Source of the DNA: Betaproteobacteria bacterium
Lineage (GTDB): Bacteria > Pseudomonadota > Gammaproteobacteria > Burkholderiales > Rhodocyclaceae
Direction of reading: 5' to 3'
Length of the DNA stretch: 64,000 bases
Assembly: GCA_016720065.1 (NCBI GenBank)
Contig: JADJXY010000002.1
Span: forward strand, 2,520,316 to 2,584,315
Shown: piece by piece, positions 11,463-44,006 of the stretch
Layout: the number at the start of each line of letters is the position of its first letter
Numbering within the stretch: position 1 is the stretch's first letter
Program-made: the position numbers and the translations under genes
The notes under the pieces: generated by a model
Database searches by the model: none
What the model saw: only the letters and a program-made list of their open reading frames with translations
What the model was told of the DNA's origin: nothing

Positions 11463-12263
11463 TTGCTCATGGCCCTGGGTATCGCCATGGTCGCCTGCGT
11501 CTATCCTCTCAGCGGCGACCGGCTGCGGCAGCGCTTGCGCCGCTGGTGGTCGCGCCGTGTCCTGGACGCCCTCGCCGTCGAAGTCGAAGCGGACCTGAGG
11601 CACGGGCGGCCGGGCAGCATGCTGGTGGCCAATCACATTTCCTGGCTGGACATCTTCGTCATCAACGCCAGCCTGCCGGCGGCCTTCGTGTCCAAGGAGG
11701 AAGTGCGCCACTGGCCGGTCGCCGGCTGGCTCGCGACCCGCAATGACACCATCTTCCTGAAGCGGGGCAGTCGCGGCCACGCCCGCCTCATCAACCAGGA
11801 AATCGCCGCGGTTCTTGCCCGGGACAAACTCGTGGCCGTCTTCCCCGAAGGCACGACCACCGACGGCACCCATCTGCTGCACTTCCACGCCGCCCTGATC
11901 CAGCCCGCCCTGGCCGCGGGCCGGCCGGTGGTGCCGACCGCCCTCTCCTACTGGGAGCCCGACGGTGAGCGCAGCCTGGCGCCGCGCTACAACGGGGACA
12001 TTTCCCTGGGCGAATGCCTGCAGAACATCCTCTCGCGCAAGCGCCTGGTGGCTCGTCTGGTGACGGCGCCGCCCCTGGGCCGGGACGGCGCCGACCGCCG
12101 CGTCGTCGCCGCGGCCGCGCGGGAGGCGATCAGCCGAGGGGCTGCGCTTCCCCCGCCGAGCACCCCACCTGGAAGACCTGCCGATCCTCCAGACGCAGCG
12201 CCGTCAGATGCCCCCCCCACAGGCAACCCGAGTCCAGCGCCAGAAGATTTGGCAAGAGCCTGA
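11463..12263 (+). CDS. olsA: Lysophospholipid/lyso-ornithine lipid O-acyltransferase (PlsC family, OlsA-like)
   Basis: HX4D acyltransferase motif (NHISWLD) and FPEGTTT motif; low-complexity Pro-rich C-terminal tail overlaps convergent apaH by 134 nt. Confidence 0.6.
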   Translation: MLMALGIAMVACVYPLSGDRLRQRLRRWWSRRVLDALAVEVEADLRHGRPGSMLVANHISWLDIFVINASLPAAFVSKEEVRHWPVAGWLATRNDTIFLKRGSRGHARLINQEIAAVLARDKLVAVFPEGTTTDGTHLLHFHAALIQPALAAGRPVVPTALSYWEPDGERSLAPRYNGDISLGECLQNILSRKRLVARLVTAPPLGRDGADRRVVAAAAREAISRGAALPPPSTPPGRPADPPDAAPSDAPPTGNPSPAPEDLARA

Positions 12264-12957
12264 GGCCCAGGGCCGACCAGTGCCCGGTGACCAGAACACT
12301 GGCGGCGCTCTGCCTTCCCGGCACCTCGAACCAGGGCAAATGACCGGGCGGCGCAGCAAGCGCCTCGCCCTTGGTATGGAATTCCATGACGCCCTCGGGG
12401 GTGCAGAAACGCAGGCGGGTCATCGCATTGACGATCACCCGCAGGCGCGCCCAGCCCGTCAGTTCATCGGACCAGGCGGCGGGCTCACTGCCCCAGAGGT
12501 TGAGGATGAAGTCGCGGTAGGAGGGCCCACGCAGAGCGGTCTCGACCTCCGCCGCAAGTTCCAATGCCCGCGCTGCGGTCCATTGCGGCAGCAAGCCGGC
12601 GTGGACGAGGCCATACTCCCCCGCGCAATGGAACAAGCGCTGGAAGCGAAGCCAGTGTAGAAGCTCGCCGCAGTCGGGGGCGTCGAGGATCTCCTGCAGG
12701 GTATCGTCCTTGCCGCGGAACTTGGCGCCCCCCTCAGCCACCATCAGCAGGTACAGATCGTGGTTGCCGAGCACCGTCACCGCCGCCTCGCCCAGGTCTC
12801 TGACGAAGCGCAGGGTCTCCAGGGACCGCGGCCCCCGATTGACCAGATCCCCCACCAGCCACAGGCGGTCGGAGGCGGGGTCGAAGGCACAAAGATCGAG
12901 CAGTCGTCGGAAGGAGTCGAAGCACCCCTGGATGTCACCGACGGCGTAGGTGGCCAT
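12130..12957 (-). CDS. apaH: Bis(5'-nucleosyl)-tetraphosphatase (symmetrical)
   Basis: 275 aa, metallophosphatase motifs (MATYAVGDIQGC, GDLVNRG, GNHD) matching ApaH. Confidence 0.85.
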   Translation of the reverse strand: MATYAVGDIQGCFDSFRRLLDLCAFDPASDRLWLVGDLVNRGPRSLETLRFVRDLGEAAVTVLGNHDLYLLMVAEGGAKFRGKDDTLQEILDAPDCGELLHWLRFQRLFHCAGEYGLVHAGLLPQWTAARALELAAEVETALRGPSYRDFILNLWGSEPAAWSDELTGWARLRVIVNAMTRLRFCTPEGVMEFHTKGEALAAPPGHLPWFEVPGRQSAASVLVTGHWSALGLRLLPNLLALDSGCLWGGHLTALRLEDRQVFQVGCSAGEAQPLG

Positions 12958-12959
12958 TA

Positions 12960-13260
12960 CTCGACGGTCACGCTCTTGGCCAGATTGCGCGGTTTGTAGC
13001 TCCGGCCGGCCGCTGCCGCGGCCTTAACCTGGCGTTGCCAGCTTAGCCTGCGCTGCAAAACGCGGATTCCCAGGGTGGTCACCGCCGTCACTCCACCGTA
13101 ACGCTCTTCGCAAGATTGCGCGGTTTGTAGCTCCGGCCGGCCGCTGCCGCGGCCTTAACCTGGCGTTGCCAGGTTAGCCTGCGCTGCAAAACGCGGATTC
13201 CCAGGGTGGTCACCACCGTCACTCCACCGTAACGCTCTTCGCAAGATTGCGCGGTTTGTC
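12960..13260. repeat. Tandem ~130-bp repeat (2 full + 1 partial unit), each unit re-encoding the last 13 codons + stop of glmS
   Basis: Units at 12960-13091, 13092-13221 and 13222-13259 (merging into glmS). Each contains rc-encoded [12 protein letters not shown]. The copy abutting the apaH ATG differs from the glmS-attached copy only at 5 synonymous positions. Spacer carries hairpins ccttaacctgg-cgttg-ccaggtta and ggccgc-tgcc-gcggcc. Confidence 0.8.
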
Positions 13261-15042
13261 CACATCCGTCCCCTTGACCAGGGCTGCGTGGTAGGAGAGC
13301 AGTTGCAGGGGGACGACGTGGAGGATGGGGGAGAGTTCGCCGTAGTGCTCGGGCAGGCGCAGGATGTGGACGCCTTCGGATTCGGGGATTTCCGAATCGG
13401 CATCGGCGAAAACGTAGAGTTCGCCGCCGCGGGCCTTCACTTCCTGCAGGTTGCTCTTGAGCTTTTCCAGCAGGGTGTCGTTGGGGGCAACGGAGATGAC
13501 CGGCATTTCCCGATCCACCAGGGCCAGGGGACCGTGCTTCAACTCACCGGCGGGGTAGGCCTCGGCGTGGATGTAGGAAATTTCCTTCAGTTTCAGCGCG
13601 CCTTCCAGAGCAATGGGGTAGTGACGGCCGCGACCGAGGAAGAGGGCGTGATGCTTGTTGGCGAACTTCTGCGCCCAGGCTTCGATTTCCGGCTCCAGTT
13701 CGAGCACCTTGTTCACCGCCACCGGCAGGTGGCGCAGGCGGTCGAGGTAGGAGGCTTCCGCTTCCGGGGTGAGGCGGCCGCGCACCTTGGCCAGCACCAG
13801 AGTCAGGAGAAAGAGGGCCGCGAGTTGCGTGGTGAAGGCCTTGGTCGAGGCGACGCCGATTTCCGGGCCGGCCCGGGTGATGAAGCGCAGGGCCGATTCG
13901 CGCACGATGGCCGATTCAGGCACGTTGCAGATGGCCAGGGTACGCAATTGCCCGAGGGACTTGGCGTGGCGCAGGGCGGCCAGCGTGTCGGCGGTTTCGC
14001 CGGATTGGGAAATGGCGACCACCAGCTGATCCGCGTCGGGCACCGAGTCGCGGTAGCGGTACTCGCTGGCGATTTCCACCGTGCAGGGCACGCCCGAGAT
14101 GGCTTCCAGCCAGTAGCGGGCGGTGAGTCCCGAGTGGTAGCTGGTGCCGCAAGCCAGGATCAGGATGGAGCGGGCGCCGGCCATCACGTCGGCCGCCTCG
14201 GCGCCGAAGATGCCCGGCTGGATGCTCTTGCTGCCGCCGACCATTTCCAGGGTGTTGGCCAGGGCGTCGGGCTGCTCGAAGATTTCCTTCTGCATGTAAT
14301 GGCGGAACTTGCCCAGTTCGACGGCGTCGGCCGAAAGCTGGGAAACCGTCACCGGCCGATCCACCGGCTGACCGCCGGCCTGGACGATGCGCACCGATTC
14401 CGGGGTCAGTTCGGCGATGTCGCCATTTTCCAGATAGACCATGTTGCGGGTGACCTGGAGCAGGGCCGAGGCGTCGGAAGCGGCGTAGTTGCCGCCCTCG
14501 CTGCGCCCGAGCAGCAGGGGAGAACCCTCCCGCGCGACGACCACCTTGCCCGGCTGACGGCGGTCGATGACGGCGATGGCGTAGGCCCCCACCAGACGGG
14601 ACGTGGCCTGCTGCACGGCCTTGAAGAGGTCCGGTTCGCGCTTCAGGGTTTCCTCGACCAGGTGGGCGATGCTCTCGGTGTCGGTGTCCGAGGTGAAGGC
14701 GTAGCCCTTGGCGGCCAGTTCCTCGCGCAGCGCTTCGTAATTCTCGATGATGCCGTTATGCACCACGGCGATGTGGCCCGAGACGTGGGGGTGGGCATTG
14801 CGTTCGCTGGGGGCGCCGTGGGTCGCCCAGCGGGTGTGGGCAATGCCGGTGGCCGAATGGGTGGCCGCCGACAGGGATTCGAGTTCCGCCACCCGGCCCA
14901 CGGATCGGATCCGGTCGATGCCGCTGGCGCCGATGACCGCCAGGCCGGCGGAATCGTAGCCCCGGTACTCGAGCTTCTTCAGGCCCTCGATGAGGACGGG
15001 AACGATATTGTTGCCGGCTGCTGCCGCGACGATGCCGCACAT
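13219..15042 (-). CDS. glmS: Glutamine--fructose-6-phosphate aminotransferase (isomerizing)
   Basis: 607 aa; N-terminal MCGIV Ntn-amidotransferase Cys1, two SIS domains, C-terminal ...[13 protein letters not shown]. Confidence 0.95.
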
Positions 15043-27822: not shown

Positions 27823-28839
27823 TCAGACCAGAAACACCCGAACGCGACCTTCGGCCTCCTCAAACCCGAAGCGCGCCGGAAGGAATTTTGCGATCACCGC
27901 GCAATTGGTCCTGGAGTGGGACGAGAGGGCGGAAGTCGTGAAACTCGCCGCCCCTCCGGCCAGAGCCAGCGGCAGCAACAACTGATCCGCCAGATGTTCG
28001 CCCACGGCGGCGCCGCTTTCGCGGTAGCGCCGGGCCTCCCGGGCGGCACGGTCGGCCACCGTTTCCGCCGGTACGCCACGGGCGCCGAAGGCAGAAAAGA
28101 CCTCCGTCACCCCGGGATACTCCAGAACCAGCATCAGGACGTTACCCGGCCCCTCGCCGTGGGGCAGCACCCGGAGCTCTTCGTCGAGGGGGCCCAGCAT
28201 GCTTGCGGCCCGCTGCATCTCGCGCTTGGCCACTTCGGCGGGCACGCCCGCCACCACGCCGATGGCGCTCGTGCGCCGCAACGCCCCCCGCGCGTCCAGT
28301 CGCAGGGGCTGCCAGGCTTTCACCGGGCCAGTGCGCGCCATCAGTTCGCCGCCACCCGCCGGGTAGAAACCGTGGCGCAGCAATTCGATATCCAGGGACA
28401 CCCCCATGGTCCGCAGCAGCGGCTGCCAACTGCGGATGAGAAAGTCGGCCGGGGGAGCGGCCGGATTGTGCGTCCCGCCGCTCACCCACAGGGTGCTGGG
28501 GCCTTCGGCAAACCACAGGGCCGGTAACACCGTTTGCAGCACCAGGGTGCAACTCCCGGCTGATCCGATGGCGAAGCGATAGTCTCCTGCCCGCACAGGC
28601 CCCGGCTGGAAGCGCAGGCGCAGGGATCCCGGCGCCGCGCCGTCCACCCTGGCCCCGCACACCGCCGCCGCAGCCTGCACGGCGGTCAGGTGCTGCCGCA
28701 GGAGGCCGGACTTCCCGCGCCCGGCGCGGATGCGCTCGATGGCGAAGGGGATGCCGGTAATCATCGACAGGCTGAGGGCGGTGCGCAGAATCTGCCCCCC
28801 GCCCTCGCCCTGGGAACCATCCAGTTCGATCCAGTCCAT
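27823..28839 (-). CDS. rtcA: RNA 3'-terminal phosphate cyclase
   Basis: 338 aa; RtcA family motifs and the adenylylated His region (…HLAD…); last gene of the rtc operon. Confidence 0.9.
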   Translation of the reverse strand: MDWIELDGSQGEGGGQILRTALSLSMITGIPFAIERIRAGRGKSGLLRQHLTAVQAAAAVCGARVDGAAPGSLRLRFQPGPVRAGDYRFAIGSAGSCTLVLQTVLPALWFAEGPSTLWVSGGTHNPAAPPADFLIRSWQPLLRTMGVSLDIELLRHGFYPAGGGELMARTGPVKAWQPLRLDARGALRRTSAIGVVAGVPAEVAKREMQRAASMLGPLDEELRVLPHGEGPGNVLMLVLEYPGVTEVFSAFGARGVPAETVADRAAREARRYRESGAAVGEHLADQLLLPLALAGGAASFTTSALSSHSRTNCAVIAKFLPARFGFEEAEGRVRVFLV

Positions 28840-28860
28840 GGTGTCGTTCTCGTTCTTTTT

Positions 28861-29679
28861 TCAGGACACCGCCAGTACCGTGCGCAGCAGAAAGGCGTCG
28901 AGTTCCGTCCCATCACCTTCCGGTTTCTTGTAGTCCGCATCCACCGGCGTTCGTGCCAGTTCATTGTCGATGAAGGCGTGGATATTTGGCCAACGCGCGC
29001 TGTATTCAGCCTCAGCGACGCTCATCTTGATCGCCAAGAGCGCGTTGATCTCGTCCAGCAACGCCACATCCGTCACCAGGGCCTCGGCCAGATCGGCAAA
29101 GCGCATGGGCGGCTGGCCCAGGCCGCACTCGATCCATTTCGCCGCCAGCAAGGGGCGAAGGACGTAAAGGTATTTCTTCAAGCGCACGTTTTCGCCTTGC
29201 AGATAGCTGCGAAAATTGCGGCGGGCCATGGACAGATAGTGATGGCGCCCACGCTTCGGGGAAAACCATTGGGCCGCGAAGTCGCGAAGTCCTGAGGTCA
29301 GCTCAGGGTCTTCCCGATATATCACCGGAGAATCCAGCCACTCGAGCAACACCGGATTGGCACGGCGCAATAGGCGCAGCGCCTTGCGCAATTCCCAGCC
29401 CCCCACGTCCAGTTCATCGCTGATCGGCAATTCGATCACGTCCCGCCTCGGTTCCACCGTCAGATACCAGGGCAGTCGGTGCACATAGAGAAAACGCACG
29501 TCGTAATCGCTATCGGGTGAGGCAAAGCCCCAGCCCCGACTGCCAGATTCACAGGCGTACAGCACCACCACATGGTGCTCTGCCTCGATGTCAGCGAGGG
29601 CCTGCATGACGCGCTTGCGCACCCCGGAGTCAATGGGGTGTGCACTCAGCACCTTGTTTCTCTCGCGCGAATCACTCAT
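28861..29679 (-). CDS. Predicted nucleotidyltransferase (Pol-beta superfamily, RtcB-associated PF10127-like)
   Basis: N-terminal GS...D.D motif (ESGSRGWGFASPDSDYDVRF) of minimal nucleotidyltransferases; 272 aa; inserted between rtcB and rtcA with 3-21 nt gaps. Confidence 0.7.
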   Translation of the reverse strand: MSDSRERNKVLSAHPIDSGVRKRVMQALADIEAEHHVVVLYACESGSRGWGFASPDSDYDVRFLYVHRLPWYLTVEPRRDVIELPISDELDVGGWELRKALRLLRRANPVLLEWLDSPVIYREDPELTSGLRDFAAQWFSPKRGRHHYLSMARRNFRSYLQGENVRLKKYLYVLRPLLAAKWIECGLGQPPMRFADLAEALVTDVALLDEINALLAIKMSVAEAEYSARWPNIHAFIDNELARTPVDADYKKPEGDGTELDAFLLRTVLAVS

Positions 29680-29682
29680 CGC

Positions 29683-30957
29683 TCACCCTTTCACGCACAC
29701 CACCTGCCGCAAGGTATGCACCACCGCCACCAGCTCGCGCTGGGCGTGCATCACGGCATCGATGTCCTTGTAGGCCATGGGGATTTCGTCGATGACTTCG
29801 CTGTCCTTGCGGCATTCGACGTGGGCGGTGGCCCTGATCTGGTCGTCCACGGTGAAGCGGCGCCGGGCCTCGTTGCGGCTCATGGCACGGCCGGCGCCGT
29901 GGCTGCAGGAGCAGAACGACTCTTCGTTGCCCAGGCCGCGCACGATGTAGCTGCGGGCGCCCATGGATCCCGGGATGATGCCGAGTTCGCCTTTCCTGGC
30001 CGACACGGCCCCCTTGCGGGTGACCAGCACCTCGGCGCCGAAGTGGGTTTCGCGCTGGACGTAGTTGTGGTGGCAGTTCACCGCCTCCACGTCGGCCGTG
30101 AAGGGCTTGGCGATGATGCGGCGGGCAGCGGCGACCACATGGCCCATCATCACGTCGCGGTTGCGGCGGGCGTAATCCTGCGCCCAGCCGACGGCTTCAA
30201 CGTAATCGGCAAAGTGCTCCGATCCTTCCTCGAAGTAGGCGAGATCCTTGTCCGGCAGATTGGCGATGTGCTGGCGCATGTCGGCCTGGGCCAGTTCGAT
30301 GAACAGGCTGCCGATGGCGTTGCCCACCCCGCGGGAGCCCGAGTGCAGCATGAACCAGACCCGGTCGGCCTCGTCCAGGCAGACTTCGATGAAGTGGTTG
30401 CCGGTACCCAGGGTTCCCAGATGCTTGTGGTTATTGGTGTTCTTGAGGCGCGGGTACTTCTCGGCGATGCGCCGGAAGCCCGGCAGCAGGGCCGACCACA
30501 GGGCGTCCACGGTCTCCGGCGGGGTTTCCCAGGCGCCCTTGTCGCGGCGGCTCTGGCGCGGCGGCGTGCGTCCGTGGGGCACCGCGACCTCGATGGCCGA
30601 ACGCAGGCCGTGCAGGCTGTCCGGCAGGTCGGCGGCAGTGAGCGTGGTGCGGGCGGCCATCATGCCGCAACCGATATCGACCCCCACCGCCGCCGGGATG
30701 ATCGCCCCTTGCGTGGGAATCACGCTGCCGATGGTGGATCCCTTGCCCAGATGGACGTCCGGCATCACCGCCAGGTGACGGAAGATGAACGGCAGGCTGG
30801 CCGTGTTCATCAATTGCTTGCGTGCCTCTTCCTCCACCGGGACGCCTTCGGTCCACAGCTTGATCGGCTTGCCCCGGGGCACTTCCTGAGTCTGGTAGGT
30901 CATGGTCTTTCCTTTCTTGCCGCTGCGCCATGCCAAGCGCCGCGGCCAAATTCTCAT
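29683..30957 (-). CDS. rtcB: RNA-splicing ligase RtcB (3'-phosphate/5'-hydroxyl RNA ligase)
   Basis: 424 aa, full-length RtcB similarity including metal-binding His/Cys residues and GTP-binding/guanylylated His region. Confidence 0.95.
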   Translation of the reverse strand: MRIWPRRLAWRSGKKGKTMTYQTQEVPRGKPIKLWTEGVPVEEEARKQLMNTASLPFIFRHLAVMPDVHLGKGSTIGSVIPTQGAIIPAAVGVDIGCGMMAARTTLTAADLPDSLHGLRSAIEVAVPHGRTPPRQSRRDKGAWETPPETVDALWSALLPGFRRIAEKYPRLKNTNNHKHLGTLGTGNHFIEVCLDEADRVWFMLHSGSRGVGNAIGSLFIELAQADMRQHIANLPDKDLAYFEEGSEHFADYVEAVGWAQDYARRNRDVMMGHVVAAARRIIAKPFTADVEAVNCHHNYVQRETHFGAEVLVTRKGAVSARKGELGIIPGSMGARSYIVRGLGNEESFCSCSHGAGRAMSRNEARRRFTVDDQIRATAHVECRKDSEVIDEIPMAYKDIDAVMHAQRELVAVVHTLRQVVCVKG

Positions 30958-30964
30958 TGCATTA

Positions 30965-31387
30965 TCAGGCGCGGGCGGCCATCACGGCCAGACGCGCCTG
31001 CTTCTTCAGCAAGCCGGCCAGCGCTGCCTGCCGGGCCTGCTCCTTGCGCTGCCGCTCGCGCTGACGGCAGGCGCAGCAGCGTTTGGCGCCGGCGTACTGG
31101 GAACCGCCGGCGCATTCGTACCACCAGCGCTGGCGCTCGGCGGTCCATACGCACTGCGCCCCACAATCGCAGCAGGTGAAGGGCTGATCGAGGTAGTAGC
31201 CCCGCTCGGCAAAAGCGCTGCGGCCATAGCTGTTATTCGCCATCAGCCGGCCGTAGTCCACCGACACGGCCCTTCCCTCGGCGAACAAGGGGGGCTCGGG
31301 ATGCCGCCGATTCTCCGCCTGACGCCGCTCCCGCCGGGCCGCCTTGATCTCGGCCCGGCGCTGCTTTCCACTCCTGTAGCCTTCCAT
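30965..31387 (-). CDS. Basic Cys-rich zinc-ribbon-like protein (hypothetical), rtc-operon encoded
   Basis: 140 aa; Arg/Lys-rich N- and C-termini; Cys cluster FTCCDCGAQCVW...YECAGG...KRCCACRQ; 7 nt from rtcB and 45 nt from the slipin gene. Confidence 0.55.
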   Translation of the reverse strand: MEGYRSGKQRRAEIKAARRERRQAENRRHPEPPLFAEGRAVSVDYGRLMANNSYGRSAFAERGYYLDQPFTCCDCGAQCVWTAERQRWWYECAGGSQYAGAKRCCACRQRERQRKEQARQAALAGLLKKQARLAVMAARA

Positions 31388-31432
31388 GTTGCGTTCTCCT
31401 TTCCTGCCCCCGATCCGGAGGCCGGCCCTGCC

Positions 31433-32569
31433 TTACTTCGCCAGGGTCACCAGGCCATTGAGCACCTGGTCGAGGCCCCCGAAGACCGAGATGCGGTCGA
31501 TGCGCTCGGCCACCCGCTCCAGGGTTTCCAGTTCCTTCAAACGCAGGGCAACCGGGTTGTCTTCCATCACCTTGGCCGTATTGAGCAACGAACGGGTCGC
31601 CGCCGTTTCTTCGCGCCGACGGATCACGTTCGCTTCGGCGGCCTTGCCCGCCTGCACCACCTGGGCCAGGATGGCCTTCATCTCGCCCGGCAGCACGATG
31701 TCCTTGACCCCGACGCCGCCGATCTCCAGGCCGAAGCCCGCCAGTTTCCGGGCGACGTGGGCGCTCACCGCCTCGTCGATGAGCTGCTTGTTTTCCAGCA
31801 GTTCGTCCAGATTGCGCGTTCCCACCGCCGCCCGCAGGCCGAATTGCAACTCGCGGTAGAGGTGTTCGGCCGGCTTGGCCAGGCGGGCGAAGGCGGTGCT
31901 GACGTCCTCGAAGCGCCAGGTGGCGGCGAGGTTGAGGCGCAGCGCCACCTTGTCGCGGGTGAGGATTTCCTGGCCGCTCACTTCGAGGGACTGCCAGCGC
32001 ATATCCACCAGGTCCACCTGAAGATCACGGTTGAAGCGCCAGTAGGCGGTCACCCCCGGTGCCAGCAGAGGCTGCTGCACGCCGTCGAGCCGCAGCACGC
32101 CGACGTGGGCCGCTGGCACCTGCACGACGAGAACACCGTTCAATCCGAGCACCGGGCGGCCGCGCAGGGCGGGTTGCAAGAGGCGCTTCACCATTGCCCC
32201 CGGCAGCGCGGCGCCCGCGCCCAGATCGAGCTTTTCCAGGCGCTGCGCCACCCCGCCGCGCCAGAAGATGCGGCGGGAAGCCGGGGGCAGCATTTCGACC
32301 AGAACCTCGTTCTCGTAGCGCAGCCCGACTTCGTCCTCGCTCATCTCCATCCACAGGAAGTGGCGTTCTGCCTCGGCCGGATCGTTGCGGCGCAGGGTAT
32401 CGACCAGATCGGTATCCGGCATCGGCGTGTCGGTCTGCCACAGGGCCAGCGACAGCTCGTTGAGCAGGTCGAACCGATAGTGGCGGCCCGGATCGAGGAT
32501 GCACTCGAAGTCGCCGTTTCGCAGCAGGGCGGCCCGTTGGTTCTTCTTCACGATGAAACGCTTCAACAT
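31433..32569 (-). CDS. SPFH/band-7 (stomatin/prohibitin/flotillin-like, slipin) domain protein
   Basis: 378 aa with SPFH core (…GVKDIVLPGEMKAILAQVVQAGKAAEANVIRRREETAATRSLLNTAKVME…); GGGAG RBS. Confidence 0.8.
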   Translation of the reverse strand: MLKRFIVKKNQRAALLRNGDFECILDPGRHYRFDLLNELSLALWQTDTPMPDTDLVDTLRRNDPAEAERHFLWMEMSEDEVGLRYENEVLVEMLPPASRRIFWRGGVAQRLEKLDLGAGAALPGAMVKRLLQPALRGRPVLGLNGVLVVQVPAAHVGVLRLDGVQQPLLAPGVTAYWRFNRDLQVDLVDMRWQSLEVSGQEILTRDKVALRLNLAATWRFEDVSTAFARLAKPAEHLYRELQFGLRAAVGTRNLDELLENKQLIDEAVSAHVARKLAGFGLEIGGVGVKDIVLPGEMKAILAQVVQAGKAAEANVIRRREETAATRSLLNTAKVMEDNPVALRLKELETLERVAERIDRISVFGGLDQVLNGLVTLAK

Positions 32570-32861
32570 GTTCTGCTCCCTTCAATTGCAAATGTCTTCG
32601 TCAACAGCGACGGCTCAACTTGCCGGCTTACGCCGGTCCGGCGGGCACCGTGCCGGGCTCCGGCGGGGGAGCCCCCGGACGGGAGGACGGGGCTGGCGGC
32701 GACCCCTGGCACCGTTGCCAAGGCCGCGCGGCCACTGCCGCCCGACACCGGAGGCCCTGCCGCCGAAGCGAAGCGAAGCGCCGGGCCGAACCGGCGGCGG
32801 GTGCTTGCGCATTCCGCAGCCGGCGGGCACTGCAAAATTCACTGTCGTGAAAGACAGTTCT

Positions 32862-32938
32862 GGAGCGGGATTCGAACCCGCGACCGACCGTTTACAAGAC
32901 GGCTGCTCTACCCGATTGAGCTATCCACAGGTGGGGTT
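32862..32938 (-). tRNA. tRNA-Thr(UGU)-like element with imperfect acceptor stem (possible pseudo-tRNA or tRNA mimic)
   Basis: Minus-strand sequence has D-arm TAGCTCAATCGGGTAGAGC, anticodon stem-loop GCCGT-CTTGTAA-ACGGT (UGU) and T-arm GCGGG-TTCGAAT-CCCGC. Acceptor 3' strand TCCAGAA pairs with only 5/7 of the 5' strand, and no CCA is encoded. Confidence 0.5.
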
Positions 32939-33100
32939 CCGGGAATCGGACCCGGGCGTGCCACCAGGCACCCCGATATCGCTTTCCCGCGACGGCGGCA
33001 TACGGCGGAGCAACCGGAGGATTCCTGACTCCACCGCACCGGCGGGGATGCGATCCCCTGACCCGTCGGCCCTGCCGCAAGTCGGCGATGGCTTCCCTAA

Positions 33101-33117
33101 CGCGAAAGCCGTGCCAG
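33101..33117 (-). promoter_or_regulatory. Candidate sigma54 (-24/-12) promoter for the rtc operon
   Basis: Minus-strand cTGGCACggctttcGCg (GG-N10-GC spacing) ~150 nt divergent from the rtcR start and ~165 nt upstream of the tRNA-like element; -12 region is a weak match to TTGCA. Confidence 0.35.
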
Positions 33118-33266
33118 CCCAAGCAGGCAACCGCAACTCACTGATTTAAAGCTGTTTCGCCAATTCCACCCGGCAAGGTGGCCGAATTATGTGATTTCTC
33201 TGTATAGTCACTTATAAATTTATATACATCGCGATTCGCCGACCAGCGCAACACAGCCAAGCCTCC

Positions 33267-34883
33267 ATGAAAAAAACTGTCGTGATCGGCTTTCTCGGCA
33301 CCCAGCTCGACTACGCCGGCAAGGGCACGGCACGCTGGGACCGGTGGCGGCCCACCGTGGCCCTGTGCCAGCAGGAAAGCCTGCTCGTCCATCGCCTCGA
33401 GGTGATCCACGACCTGCGCAGCCGGAGCCTCGCCGAACGGGTGGGCAACGACATCGCCCGCATTGCGCCGGAGACCGAGTTCAAGCGGGTGGAAATGGAA
33501 CTGCGCGACCCCTGGGATTTCGAGGAGGTCTATACCGCGCTGCACGACTTCGCCCGCGGCTACGCCTTCGATCCGGAAAATGAGGAATACCTCATCCACA
33601 TCACCACCGGCACCCACGTCGCGCAGATCTGCTGGTTCCTGCTCGCCGAGGCGCATTACCTGCCGGCCCGCCTGCTCCAGACGTCGCCGCCGCGCAAAAA
33701 GGATGTCGCCGACAGCATCGGCGGATACGAGATCATCGATCTCGATCTGTCGCGCTATGACCGCATCGCCCAGCGCTTTGCCCGGGAACGCGACGACAGC
33801 GTCTCCTTCCTCAAGTCGGGGATCGCCACGCGCAATCCAGGGTTCAACCGCATGATCGAACAGATCGAGCACGTGGCCGGCCGCTCGCGCGCCCCCATGC
33901 TCCTGGTCGGCCCCACGGGGGCGGGCAAGTCCTTCCTTGCCCGGCGGGTCTTTGAACTCAAGCGCCAGCGGCAGGCATTGACGGGGCGCTTCGTCGAAGT
34001 CAATTGCGCCACCCTGCGCGGCGATTCCGCCATGTCCGCCCTGTTCGGCCACAGCAAGGGCGCCTTCACCGGCGCCCAGCAGGAGCGGCCGGGCCTGCTG
34101 CGGTCCGCCGACGGCGGCCTGCTCTTTCTCGATGAAATCGGCGAACTCGGCCTCGACGAGCAAGCCATGCTGCTCAAGGCCATCGAGGAAAAGCGCTTCT
34201 TTCCCTTCGGCAGCGACCAGGAAGCCAGCAGCGATTTCCAGTTGATCGCCGGCACCCATCGCGACCTGCGCCAGTGGGTGCGCCAGGGCAGGTTCCGCGC
34301 AGACCTCTACGCCCGCATCAACCTATGGACCTTCGACCTGCCGGGCCTCGCCGGCCGGCCCGAGGACATCGAGCCCAATCTCGACTACGAACTGGAACGC
34401 TTCGCCGCCGATCACGGCCAACGGGTGCGCTTCAACAGCGAGGCGCGGCGGCGCTACCTCGCCTTCGCCACCTCGGCCGCAGCGCGCTGGCACGGCAATT
34501 TCCGCGAACTCGGCGCCTCACTGACCCGCCTCGCCACCCTGGCCGCCGCCGGACGCATCACCGAGCCCGACGTGGCCGACGAAATCGCCCGACTCACCGC
34601 CACCTGGGCTGAGGAGCCGAGCGGCGACGCCAGCGCGGAAATCCTTGGCGCCGACGCGGAAGCCCTCGACCTCTTCGATCGCAGCCAGTTGAACACCGTG
34701 ATCGCCGTCTGCCGCGCCAGCGTCAGCCTGTCCGAGGCCGGTCGCCGCCTGTTCGCCGTCTCCCGGGCGGAAAAGAAGCAGCGCAACGATGCCGACCGCC
34801 TGCGCAAGTACCTGGCCCGCTTCGGCCTCACCTTCGACACGCTGCGCAAACCCGCCGCGAGCGCCCGGCAAGTTCCTTCATGA
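33267..34883 (+). CDS. rtcR: Sigma54-dependent transcriptional regulator RtcR (CARF domain + AAA+ sigma54-activation domain + HTH)
   Basis: 538 aa; N-terminal CARF-like domain typical of RtcR, central Walker A GPTGAGKS, GAFTGA motif (HSKGAFTGAQ), ESELFGH-like region; divergent from the rtcBA operon. Confidence 0.9.
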   Translation: MKKTVVIGFLGTQLDYAGKGTARWDRWRPTVALCQQESLLVHRLEVIHDLRSRSLAERVGNDIARIAPETEFKRVEMELRDPWDFEEVYTALHDFARGYAFDPENEEYLIHITTGTHVAQICWFLLAEAHYLPARLLQTSPPRKKDVADSIGGYEIIDLDLSRYDRIAQRFARERDDSVSFLKSGIATRNPGFNRMIEQIEHVAGRSRAPMLLVGPTGAGKSFLARRVFELKRQRQALTGRFVEVNCATLRGDSAMSALFGHSKGAFTGAQQERPGLLRSADGGLLFLDEIGELGLDEQAMLLKAIEEKRFFPFGSDQEASSDFQLIAGTHRDLRQWVRQGRFRADLYARINLWTFDLPGLAGRPEDIEPNLDYELERFAADHGQRVRFNSEARRRYLAFATSAAARWHGNFRELGASLTRLATLAAAGRITEPDVADEIARLTATWAEEPSGDASAEILGADAEALDLFDRSQLNTVIAVCRASVSLSEAGRRLFAVSRAEKKQRNDADRLRKYLARFGLTFDTLRKPAASARQVPS

Positions 34884-42848: not shown

Positions 42849-43723
42849 GCGCCCTTCTGATCGCCTCGCCACCGCCCGCGGAGTCGCGGCGTCTGGCCCT
42901 GGCGATCGGGATTTCCCTGGCGCTGCACGCCGCGCTGCTCGCCTTGCACTTCCAGTTTCCCGAAGCCTCTCGCGCCGTGCGCGAGAAGGCCCTGGACATC
43001 ATCCTGGTCAATGCCAAGTCCGCTACCAAGCCCAAGGATCCCCAGGCCCTGGCTCAGAGCAATCTGGACGGCGGGGGCAACACCGACGAAAACCGCCGCG
43101 CCAAGACTCCCCTGCCGCCGACCCGGCAGCAGACCGCCGGCAGCGACGTGGAGCAGATGCAGCGCCGGGTGCAGGAACTGGAGGCGCGTCAGCAGCAACT
43201 GTTGAGCGAGGCCCGCACCCTGAGGAGCGCCACGGTGACGCCCCCCGGCGAGGAGCGCAACACGGCCCCCAACGCCACCGGCCTCGACCTGGTCGAAGCC
43301 GCCCGGGCCATGGCCCGCCTGGAAGGCGAAATCAGCAAGTCGGTGGACGAATACAGCAAGCGGCCCCGGCGGCGCTTCATCGGCGCCCGGGCCGAGGAAT
43401 ACCGTTTTGCCCAGTACATCGAGGATTGGCGCCAGAAGGTCGAGCGGGTCGGCACCCTCAACTACCCGGATGCAGCCCGCGGCAAACTCTACGGCTCCCT
43501 GGTCATGACGGTCTCTATCCTGGCCGACGGCAGCGTCGCACACATCGACATCAGCCGATCCTCCGGCCACAAGGTTCTCGATGACGCCGCACGGCGCATC
43601 GTCCAGATGGCCTCCCCCTACGCCGCCTTCCCGCCGGAAATCCGCCGCGATACCGACATCCTGGATGTGACGCGCATCTGGTACTTCACTCAGGGAGACA
43701 GCCTGGAGTCCAAGGCACGATGA
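42845..43723 (+). CDS. TonB-family C-terminal domain protein (energy transducer TonB-like)
   Basis: N-terminal TM anchor, Pro/Gln-rich spacer, C-terminal TonB-like domain (…YPDAARGKLYGSLVMTVSILADGSVAHIDISRSSGHKVLDDAARRIV…); start overlaps the RNB gene stop (ATGA). Confidence 0.6.
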   Translation: MSALLIASPPPAESRRLALAIGISLALHAALLALHFQFPEASRAVREKALDIILVNAKSATKPKDPQALAQSNLDGGGNTDENRRAKTPLPPTRQQTAGSDVEQMQRRVQELEARQQQLLSEARTLRSATVTPPGEERNTAPNATGLDLVEAARAMARLEGEISKSVDEYSKRPRRRFIGARAEEYRFAQYIEDWRQKVERVGTLNYPDAARGKLYGSLVMTVSILADGSVAHIDISRSSGHKVLDDAARRIVQMASPYAAFPPEIRRDTDILDVTRIWYFTQGDSLESKAR

Positions 43724-43746
43724 CCGACCGTTACGCCGTTTTTGGC

Positions 43747-43979
<233 letters not shown>

Positions 43980-44006
<27 letters not shown>

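Follow-up and report, generated by a model that had tools for sequence, protein, structure and literature searches.

Tandem gene-end repeats between glmS and apaH carry a structured module that recurs at other gene ends in Betaproteobacteria

In the 64,000-nt stretch of betaproteobacterial DNA analysed here (the window), glmS and apaH lie on the minus strand on either side of a repeat array (Table 1). TRF returned a single array at 12959–13259 with a period of 131, 2.3 copies, 95% matches and 0 indels, and together with the exact coordinates this confirmed that the tandem gene-end repeats described at the glmS-apaH junction by a sequence-only reading of this DNA are real; the coordinates of that reading were 2–3 nt off and its "13 residues" are 12 residues plus a stop, while the rest of its description was correct. 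The 131-bp unit consists of a 39-nt gene end followed by a 92-nt spacer. Two such units lie 3' of glmS, and a third copy of the gene end closes the array, its TAA overlapping the apaH ATG as TAATG. This distal copy, A', encodes the same 12 residues and stop as A1, the copy contiguous with glmS, through five synonymous codon changes plus a TGA-to-TAA change. The two spacers, B1 and B2, differ at 2 of 92 positions, and one of these differences disrupts a pair of hairpin 1. When the whole window was searched for the 90-nt spacer, it was found at these two places only, against a chance expectation of 0 matches.

Table 1. Features of the glmS-apaH junction and of the second family locus in the window
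Feature	Position	Strand	Evidence or remark
glmS (glutamine--fructose-6-phosphate transaminase), 607 aa	13219-15042	-	ORF listing; NCBIfam TIGR01135, 826 bits, full length
Gene-end copy A1, last 12 codons + TGA of glmS, contiguous with glmS	13219-13257	-	
Spacer B1, unit 1, 92 nt	13127-13218	-	Covariance model R1 match 13111-13198, 88.3 bits, E 2e-24
B1: filler v, 23 nt	13196-13218	-	
B1: P1 left arm CGCGTTTTGCAGC	13183-13195	-	
B1: junction GCAGGC	13177-13182	-	
B1: hairpin 1	13156-13176	-	
B1: single A	13155	-	
B1: hairpin 2	13139-13154	-	
B1: GGCCGGA	13132-13138	-	
B1: GCTAC	13127-13131	-	
Gene-end copy A2, identical to A1	13088-13126	-	
Spacer B2, unit 2	12996-13087	-	R1 match 12980-13067, 79.8 bits; fold -38.8 kcal/mol
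Distal gene-end copy A'	12957-12995	-	
apaH (symmetrical bis(5'-nucleosyl)-tetraphosphatase), 275 aa	12130-12957	-	NCBIfam NF001204, 355 bits
Relay ORF 1, 44 codons	13088-13222	-	GTG overlaps glmS TGA (GTGA); reads v + module; ends at A2 stop
Relay ORF 2, 44 codons	12957-13091	-	GTG overlaps A2 stop; ends at TAA overlapping apaH ATG
Second family locus, generic type	43726-43806	-	R1 49.3 bits, E ~2e-12
Vestigial aroE start copy ATGACCGACCGTTACGCCGTTTTTGGC	43720-43746	+	Overlaps tonB-like stop (ATGA)

The three-copy layout, with the identical two inter-unit differences, is also present in two independent metagenome-assembled genomes from NCBI (GCA_017983825.1 and GCA_020051655.1), and partial versions of the array occur in contigs from ENA, JGI and Logan. 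These independent assemblies, with their consistent unit-specific SNPs, rule out an assembly artefact. Copy number and unit composition of the array vary between assemblies: one JGI contig (L013) has one unit, and the first unit of another contig (L014) is a hybrid of the window's two units. Relative to the window, L013 shows a 16-fold jump in SNP density precisely at the boundary of the last unit; L013 may be a chimeric metagenome contig, and this jump was kept out of the evidence.

The minimum free energy fold of a single B1 unit is a three-way junction (-42.9 kcal/mol, z -3.1). Both hairpins that the sequence-only reading had pointed out are present and are conserved through compensatory changes, which a consensus fold from three species shows in each of them. 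In an alignment of 39 sequences, 91% of the cells pair, compared with 74.5% in shuffles and 24–42% in slid controls, and 18 of the 29 pairs show double changes. On the glmS-sense strand, the ~69-nt module comprises an outer helix (P1), the junction GCAGGC, hairpin 1 (TAAC...GTTA) and hairpin 2 (GGCC...GGCC). The left arm of P1 belongs to the element, and its pairing partner is the beginning of the gene-end copy that follows; in unit 1, the right arm is composed of the GCTAC that ends B1 and the first 8 nt of A2 (AAACCGCG). A constant 10 nt separates hairpin 2 from the unit boundary. Without exception, this boundary lies at G^A(A/C)AA and coincides with a C·A mismatch that is conserved in P1; the site of the glmS cassette is G^ACAA, at codons 595/596. 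The metagenome search pattern fixed 23 nucleotides, at which invariance reflects ascertainment and is not evidence. Wobble pairs number 32 G·U versus 24 A·C overall, with the special mismatch excluded, and 6 versus 0 in the core helices, counts that weakly favor assignment of the structure to the sense strand. Rfam returned no match at E ≤ 1 over positions 12000–14000, and ARAGORN gave no tRNA or tmRNA. The spacers had also been proposed to act as a terminator stack; no terminator-like site was found, and a U-tract is absent after the stem.

Comparison with relatives separates the native from the foreign gene ends. In Dechloromonas and Azonexus relatives, the two genes meet in a TAATG or TGATG, with the glmS stop overlapping or directly adjoining the apaH start (L015, L026, L028, L033, L034 and L039). 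The distal copy A' overlaps apaH alike and is nearer to these relatives than the proximal copy. It is the resident, ancestral glmS end, which bears out the earlier suggestion that it was once the functional glmS terminus. A1, which differs from A' only synonymously and is further from the relatives' glmS ends, would then be the functional, cassette-borne end of glmS. Over ten loci, the proximal and distal glmS copies show 42 synonymous and 4 non-synonymous codon differences. At the L024 locus, whose four nearest relatives (90–93% nucleotide identity) are without the insert, private differences rise from ~2–3 per 100 nt upstream to 8 within nucleotides 14–38 of the proximal copy, and the distal copy ends in the TAG stop common to the relatives. 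This pattern indicates that exactly one unit was imported into L024, with a foreign proximal and a native distal gene end. As a general idea, integration or recombination at the glmS 3' end was rightly anticipated. The insert is patchy, being present at 2 of 80 apaH loci of related species. In-situ target-site duplication was rejected as the source of the copies in the window and L024, since the proximal copy is foreign. The filler opens with a TGATG stop/start overlap at L024, L135, L036, L096 and L107, and the L024 filler resembles the apaH start. The TGATG is a vestige of the apaH start, and from these features one long duplication probably happened once, at the birth of the glmS subfamily. 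The right-hand junction nucleotide is not constant, and at L135 and L036 the imported tract seems to extend through the distal copy, which fits homologous recombination equally well as a site-specific event.

The module belongs to a family represented by 72 modules on 66 metagenome contigs. The second family locus in the window lies between a tonB-like gene and aroE, antisense to both, and the same insertion is present in other assemblies (L163); the vestigial aroE start at this locus is identical to the real one at 43980–44006. The order of foreign proximal gene end, structured module and native gene end is found at other genes too, and glmS-like architecture occurs at yggX (L160), accB-accC (L150), rplQ (L144) and ftsW-murG (L145, L143, L151 and L156), while 99-nt inserts lie in frame within an RND gene and murF. 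Relay mini-ORFs with the tails of FtsW, CcmE, AccB, MraY and YggX form 663 clusters, and these peptide tails indicate that ccmE and mraY are likely family sites as well. Modules are co-oriented with the upstream gene at ~19 loci versus 4, the upstream gene ending 18–70 nt before the module. Within one genome, modules at separate loci have different hairpin sequences, so that nothing points to recent transposition inside a genome; the module lineages look locus-specific. A common polarity of the arrays, with the newest unit proximal and the older ones decayed, holds for L150, L144 and the window but fails for L151 and L145, and was rejected. No account of such elements turned up in the literature, whether we searched with sequence strings, with peptide motifs or for concepts; the family is widespread in Betaproteobacteria at the ends of tightly packed essential genes and apparently undescribed.

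Each unit also contains a reading frame that links one stop to the next (relay ORFs, Table 1). Relay ORF 1 has no NCBIfam match, and mini-ORFs homologous to it fall into 29 glmS-type protein clusters. A start at -1 with an open frame up to the next stop is found at 9 of the 10 glmS-type loci, and unit lengths of 131, 128, 116, 143, 146 and 149 nt as well as the 266-nt two-unit span are all 2 mod 3; in the exception, L110 (138 nt), the stop/start overlap is absent. Judging from the reading frames only, the relay ORFs could preserve translational coupling.

We consider it likely that the 131-bp unit is a small non-autonomous "gene-end cassette" that bears a spare glmS end, a ~23-nt filler and the ~69-nt three-way-junction module. 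The cassette would enter at G^ACAA in glmS and displace the resident end A', which would still overlap the apaH start. Entry would proceed by a single recombination within the first ≤14 nt of the repeated block, the P1 arm, probably with a folded strand, or a circle of one or several units, as the substrate and an enzyme encoded elsewhere. The second unit would derive from unequal crossing-over or from a second insertion. Each unit keeps a start on the preceding stop ([A/G]TGA) and a stop-free frame of 43–44 codons to the next stop, and the insertion would be tolerated because of these two features: ribosomes leaving glmS could be passed on via the two mini-ORFs to apaH, whereby both genes would stay intact and coupled. 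In the sequence available, we found no recombinase, transposase, reverse transcriptase or HUH gene associated with the elements; within 4 kb of the modules, the neighbours that recur are housekeeping genes only, and none is a mobility gene. Among possible carriers, two patterns gave 0 matches in IMG/VR, and PLSDB plasmids gave 0 matches.

The alternative that survives best, although we regard it as unlikely, is a vertically inherited host RNA functioning in the 3'-UTR as an mRNA 3'-end stabiliser or as a processing or protein-binding site; the gene-end duplicates would then arise by slippage around the stable hairpin, and the horizontal spread would be ordinary allelic recombination. The compensatory evolution of the helices agrees with this explanation, as do the strong co-orientation with an upstream gene that ends shortly before the module, the occurrence of G·U but never A·C when the core helices are read on the sense strand, the locus-specific lineages and the lack of an associated mobility gene. 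However, it does not account for the patchy distribution among close relatives, for the foreign proximal gene end of L024, which is exactly one unit long, or for a unit boundary fixed at a conserved mismatch. In addition, antisense and intragenic insertions occur, no Rfam family matches, and the distal copies retain coding capacity in many species, whereas old vertical duplicates should have decayed.

We find it improbable that the array is the scar of a larger integrase-encoding island, similar to a CIME, that inserted into the glmS 3' end with a replacement end and then lost its interior. When an integrase inserts DNA into the 3' end of a gene, direct repeats of the gene end whose proximal copy is foreign are the classical signature, but the unit of 131 nt (128–138) recurs at 10 or more loci and across 29 protein clusters and is conserved with covariation, which a random deletion remnant would not be; moreover, in none of the 66 contigs do the repeats enclose a large element, the neighbourhood yielded no integrase, and the module is present at many other genes. 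Even less probable, in our view, is an origin without any separate element, the glmS 3' end having simply been duplicated in tandem or exchanged between alleles by unequal crossing-over. The near identity of the two units, the varying copy number between assemblies and the hybrid unit all speak for such exchange, and unequal crossing-over between alleles, which the sequence-only reading had offered, probably did produce two units from one; as the origin of the array it fails, since the first A-B-A' state cannot arise in this way and since the spacer family at unrelated genes, the foreign proximal end and the covariation would be left unexplained. A Tn7-like (TnsD/attTn7) footprint or an assembly artefact hardly deserves credence even though glmS 3' ends are classical attTn7 sites and repeats are prone to mis-assembly, because the junction lies within the glmS coding sequence, the 5-bp duplication, Tn7 ends and tns genes are absent (ORFs scanned), and the structure occurs in several independent assemblies with consistent unit-specific SNPs.

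Going beyond the gene-end cassette itself, we only tentatively entertain a new class of mobile element, miniature, site-specific and equipped with a guide, whose integrated form would be the units seen here. Such an element would be a single-stranded circle of unit or multimeric length, closed via P1 and made of DNA or of RNA that is copied back to DNA. Its left arm would serve as the guide, base-paired to a target G^AAAA close to where a conserved gene ends. The conserved C·A mismatch, which lies 10 nt away from hairpin 2, would be the site of strand cleavage and joining by a trans-acting enzyme of the HUH or tyrosine type or by the RNA itself. The spare gene end and the relay ORF would allow it to survive in essential overlapping operons.

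If the gene-end cassette is real, elements of ~100 nt in Betaproteobacteria can enter the most constrained places of a genome, the overlapping junctions of essential genes (glmS-apaH, ftsW-murG, mraY, accB-accC and ccmE-ccmF), and their entry is managed by a replacement gene end and a mini-ORF that passes ribosomes to the next gene. This would explain hundreds of unannotated "hypothetical proteins" of 36–88 aa in public databases, would account for assembly breaks at these gene junctions, and would offer a specific example, open to testing, of an insertion that leaves translational coupling intact. A boundary that is always placed on the conserved mismatch, within a helix containing the target, points to recombination or cleavage chemistry undescribed for elements so small. 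The extra glmS ends would also constitute additional attTn7-like sequences, which is relevant to Tn7-based genome engineering in these wastewater organisms.

Among known systems, Tn7 at attTn7 inserts ~23–25 bp past the glmS stop, with a 5-bp target duplication, TGT...ACA ends, repeated TnsB sites and the genes tnsABCD. The conserved glmS 3' end is what the two cases have in common, whereas position, duplication, ends and gene content are different. The involvement of TnsD and attTn7 suggested by the sequence-only reading is therefore not supported: the junction lies between glmS codons 595 and 596 (GAC^AAA) and not ~23 bp past the stop, the duplicated block is at least 39 nt long, the spacer has no Tn7 ends, the structured module sits at many non-glmS genes, and the 28 window ORFs scanned include no transposase, Tns or integrase. 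We also rejected a Tn7-like mini-element bounded by inverted termini of 14 nt and duplicating 5 bp (CCGCG), as the CCGCG belongs to the inverted repeat of P1, and L024 and L036 lack the pattern.

By-eye comparison with consensus features led us to discard integron attC sites, XerCD dif sites, hammerheads, the TR/VR repeats of DGRs and group I P1 helices (U·G at the boundary, antisense strand), each of which failed in architecture or sequence. The repeats of a DGR would differ only at adenines of the template and have an RT nearby, whereas the gene-end copies here differ at third codon positions by changes such as T>G, G>C and G>A, and no RT was present among the ORFs scanned. Like attC, the module is a structure-defined, covarying hairpin resembling a recombination site, forms arrays of short units and has a conserved unpaired base near the boundary. 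Unlike attC, it has no RYYYAAC...GTTRRRY cores, shows the opposite stem-end polarity (P1 is GTTTCGGC...GCCAAAAC, its left side carrying GTT and its right side AAC), is branched where attC forms one bulged hairpin, and does not lie in integron platforms. Rickettsia palindromic elements share with some members the in-frame position inside genes whose ORF stays open (RND, murF), but the hosts here are Betaproteobacteria and most members lie at gene ends with gene-end copies and relay ORFs; by-eye comparison recognised no sequence relationship.

REP/BIME/REPIN sequences and MITEs are likewise small, structured, non-autonomous and GC-rich, occur in several copies per genome mostly just 3' of genes, and are sometimes nested, one subfamily here being inside an IS5-like MITE. 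RAYT-associated REPs are 20–40-nt imperfect palindromes headed by GTAG/CGTC, whereas generic members here lack this head, reading ...TTTTGGCTCCGG on the complementary strand, and have two unlike hairpins instead of a simple palindrome; GTAG is found only in the glmS subfamily. As in MITEs, the P1 arms are inverted repeats, but there is no fixed short duplication of 2–10 bp: the flanking duplications measure 24–64+ nt, terminate at ORF boundaries and in many cases are foreign, as are the repeats of L024.

Integrative elements that insert at gene 3' ends with a replacement end, and CIMEs, which derive from them and lack the integrase, share three features with the cassettes: gene-end direct repeats flank the insert, an element-borne copy with silent-site differences from the resident copy completes the gene, and units accrete in tandem at the regenerated site. 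At glmS, yggX, accB and ftsW, the gene is restored by the element's copy and direct repeats flank the insert. No parent element encoding an integrase was found in the 66 contigs, IMG/VR or PLSDB. The unit here measures 78–150 nt and not kilobases, and has no integrase; what is conserved in it is a three-way junction with covarying pairs, the target being part of the outer helix, and its boundary lies on a conserved C·A mismatch.

The three copies of the glmS 3' end between glmS and apaH, each followed by a spacer in the two repeat units, fall in a single tandem array (TRF; 12959-13259, period 131, 2.3 copies, 95% matches), as the sequence-only reading had described them. The distal copy A' leaves the peptide of the gene-completing copy A1 unchanged, and its five synonymous changes agree with that reading as well; its stop is TAA instead of TGA. 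Because the identical three-copy layout with its unit-specific differences recurs in two independent NCBI metagenome-assembled genomes (MAGs), is matched in part by ENA, JGI and Logan contigs, and varies in unit count among JGI contigs (one has a single unit, another a hybrid first unit), the feature is real and not an assembly artefact, and its copy number is polymorphic. The spacer in this form has no further site elsewhere in the window, where a more distant family member was found upstream of aroE (see table). Upstream of the last unit boundary, contig L013 has 11 SNPs against the window (12797-12984 region) in 6.6 kb; from the distal copy on it has 8 in 300 bp, so that either recombination had its breakpoint at this boundary or the metagenome contig is chimeric. 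At its other end, apaH overlaps an OlsA-like acyltransferase ORF (11463-12263, +) convergently by ~134 nt (12130-12263), an overlap also present in the gene call of assembly L002.

Features of the glmS-apaH array and of the related insertion upstream of aroE
Feature	Position	Strand	Remarks
glmS	13219-15042	-	TIGR01135, 826 bits
A1, last 12 glmS codons and stop, 39 nt	13219-13257	-	
B1, spacer, 92 nt	13127-13218	-	
A2, gene-end copy	13088-13126	-	identical to A1
B2, spacer	12996-13087	-	2 differences from B1
A', distal gene-end copy	12957-12995	-	TAA overlaps apaH ATG
apaH	12130-12957	-	NF001204, 355 bits
Third member, antisense between tonB-like gene and aroE	43726-43806	-	covariance model R1, 49 bits
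aroE-start direct repeats, 27 nt	43720-43746 and 43980-44006		

The proximal gene ends are foreign. Among 80 species-level relatives retrieved through ApaH (Dechloromonas, Azonexus and other Rhodocyclaceae), the closest clade has glmS directly upstream of apaH; the glmS stop overlaps the apaH start (TAATG or TGATG) in six species, while in others 0-6 nt separate the genes or there is a conserved ~32-57-nt spacer. Since this overlap is the arrangement of A', A' sits in its native context. A' differs from the glmS end of D. hortensis at 4 positions and the proximal copy at at least 9, which upholds the earlier suggestion that the distal copy was once the functional glmS terminus. Only 2 of the 80 related apaH loci contain the insert. 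Across ten glmS-type loci (the window and L013 not being independent), the proximal and distal ends differ by 42 synonymous and 4 non-synonymous codons, and three of the latter are K>T in the first codon, always in the untranslated copy. Since a neutral copy made in place would gain mostly non-synonymous changes, both copies evolved as working glmS ends that were later brought together.

A single unit was imported in the Azonexus MAG L024, whose four nearest relatives (90-93% nucleotide identity) are without the insert. Its private differences rise from ~2-3 per 100 nt over the 900 nt upstream to 8 between nt 14 and 38 of the proximal copy, and its distal copy has the TAG stop and CCA codon common to its relatives; the import therefore comprised exactly one unit, with both junctions at most 14 nt from the unit boundary. 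The filler following the proximal stop starts with TGATGGCTGAGTAC, close to TGATGGCTACCTAC at the glmS/apaH overlap of another assembly (L039) and a mismatch to L024's own glmS-apaH arrangement. Because the filler resembles an overlap that is absent in L024, the cassette was born in a genome with overlapping glmS and apaH and then moved.

The folded module within the spacer is conserved. In L024 and a second Azonexus MAG, L036, the same glmS codon is the site of a homologous insertion of 131 bp, in which the first ~25 nt after the stop are unrelated, the remainder is conserved and both hairpins show compensatory changes. Searching metagenomes with a degenerate pattern of 23 nt yielded 72 modules on 66 contigs, and an alignment of 39 sequences (A3) supports a three-way junction. 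The outer helix P1 has a locus-specific outer part and an inner part that is TTTCGGC/GCCAAAA in the generic and TTGCAGC/GCTACAA in the glmS type; there follow the junction GCAGGC, hairpin 1 (TAAC...GTTA) with a single A after it, and hairpin 2 (GGCC...GGCC), from which exactly 10 nt lead to the unit boundary. Of the cells, 91% were paired, compared with 74.5% in column shuffles (the observed value was reached in 0 of 500) and 24-42% in slid registers; 18 of the 29 pairs changed on both sides. Nucleotides that the search pattern had fixed count for nothing in this respect, the covariation being located in unconstrained stem positions. A single unit alone folds to the three-way junction (-42.9 kcal/mol, z -3.1), and neither Rfam nor ARAGORN gave a match for the module. 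At one P1 position, 36 of the 39 sequences have a C·A mismatch.

The covariance model R1 matched both glmS units and the third member, next to which the start of aroE is duplicated: a vestigial copy keeps the native ATGA overlap with the stop of the tonB-like gene, and the other copy heads the real aroE. Other assemblies have the same insertion. A run of 110 G upstream of aroE (43825-43934), missing at the same locus in other assemblies (L163, L162, L165), probably arose artefactually at a break, in sequencing or in assembly; at the corresponding TA, L161 (GCA_016713705.1) has an IS630-family (DDE_3) element just upstream of aroE (405-1439), so the site may be a hotspot for insertions or may vary among strains in a way that broke the assembly.

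Arrays occur at other genes as well. A yggX end is followed by a module, an identical copy, a second module and a diverged native end before the native terminator (L160); an accB end (ENGQPVEYGEPLFIIG) by a module, a diverged copy, a decayed module and accC (L150), a layout shared by an rplQ end (L144); and ftsW ends by one or more modules and then the native ftsW end, which overlaps the ATG of murG (L145, L143, L151, L156). In-frame 99-nt insertions lie in an RND transporter gene and near the end of murF (L099, oriented 1219-1468; L102; L151, 2743-2832), with three tandem units inside the transporter gene of L099; these ORFs remain open, and each unit would add 33 aa. At every one of these loci the duplicated block starts directly after module position 75. 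The site is G^AAAA or G^ACAA, as a rule in codons GAA AAY or GAC AAR, and the fixed boundary falls exactly on the C·A mismatch, inside the helix containing the target sequence. Two multi-copy subfamilies from one metagenome pair differ, one being a ~140-bp REP-like unit and the other a ~230-bp MITE with an embedded module. Many copies of the latter were seen (L095, L103, L112, L116, L120 and ~20 more in Ga0308417/Ga0308420), with 17-bp terminal inverted repeats (GGAAACGCTGAAGAAAT), IS5-like CTAR flanks and an 'empty' stem, GTTTCGGC-GAA-GCCAAAAC, adjoining the full module.

The units also keep a reading frame. Nine of ten glmS-type loci have, at -1, a start codon that overlaps the preceding stop (ATGA or GTGA) and opens a relay ORF of 43-44 codons through filler and module to the stop of the next copy, the last one in the window ending on the TAA that overlaps the apaH ATG. 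Only L110 (138 nt) departs from this: its TAG stop is not overlapped by a start, and its next gene is 142 nt off. The glmS unit lengths (131 or 128) and the ftsW-murG stop-to-stop distances (116, 143, 146 and 149; two-unit span 266) are all 2 mod 3, the value that a relay needs. A relay-peptide profile (E<=1) found 663 protein clusters of 36-88 aa, every one 'hypothetical' and free of Pfam domains, with tails that are the ends of FtsW, CcmE, AccB, MraY, YggX and others and with named hosts including Novimethylophilus, Ca. Desulfobacillus, Rhodocyclaceae and Thiobacillaceae; a glmS-type profile found 29, a second module variant among them. Judged from frames and lengths, relay ORFs may preserve translational coupling. 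Protein cluster P0133 (6 member sequences) contains a relay ORF near-identical to window unit 2 but decayed in its tail (KPRNPAKGVFVA), so in some related strains a gene-end copy is degenerating.

The main rival explanation is a host-useful 3'-UTR RNA under mostly vertical inheritance. It would account for the covariation and for the orientation bias, since the module is co-oriented with an upstream gene ending 18-70 nt before it at ~19 independent loci and otherwise placed at ~4, but the patchy distribution, the foreign unit and the intact distal copies do not fit it. Under the main reading, of a mobile cassette, entry was probably one Campbell-type recombination in the P1 arm of the repeated block, by which the gene took up a unit in circular or multimeric form; re-insertion or unequal crossing-over would then have made two units of one. 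Right junctions past the unit boundary, as in L135 and L036, show that at least part of the spread involves homologous recombination. In L135 (JRYJ01002468.1) the second glmS-end copy equals the first and is followed by GTGGAGTGACG joined to GTGGAGTAATGG, with the last codons partly repeated once more ahead of the apaH ATG, a junction unlike those of other loci. No recurrent mobility gene was found near modules, none among the 28 window ORFs scanned, and no carriers in IMG/VR or PLSDB. The window also encodes an RNA-repair operon (27823-34883; rtcA for RNA 3'-phosphate cyclase, RlaP nucleotidyltransferase and RtcB ligase, with a divergent sigma-54 activator RtcR), and an RNA ligase is intriguing beside the earlier proposal of a unit-length or multimeric circle as the mobile form, although any link would be speculative.

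We found no published description of the cassette family, which is absence of evidence only given incomplete literature coverage, and a MITE review mentions nothing similar; that the family represents a new mobilisation mechanism seems unlikely. Membership tests rejected Tn7, and with it the attTn7 origin raised earlier, as well as attC, DGR and any Rfam family. We rate the cassette as allied to small non-autonomous structured repeats and gene-end-restoring integrative elements. It looks similar to REP sequences and MITEs, but has neither the head motif nor the short target duplication that define them; some module-family members behave like Rickettsia palindromic elements; and, as with integrative elements, the interrupted gene is restored, although by a cassette of only ~100 nt.
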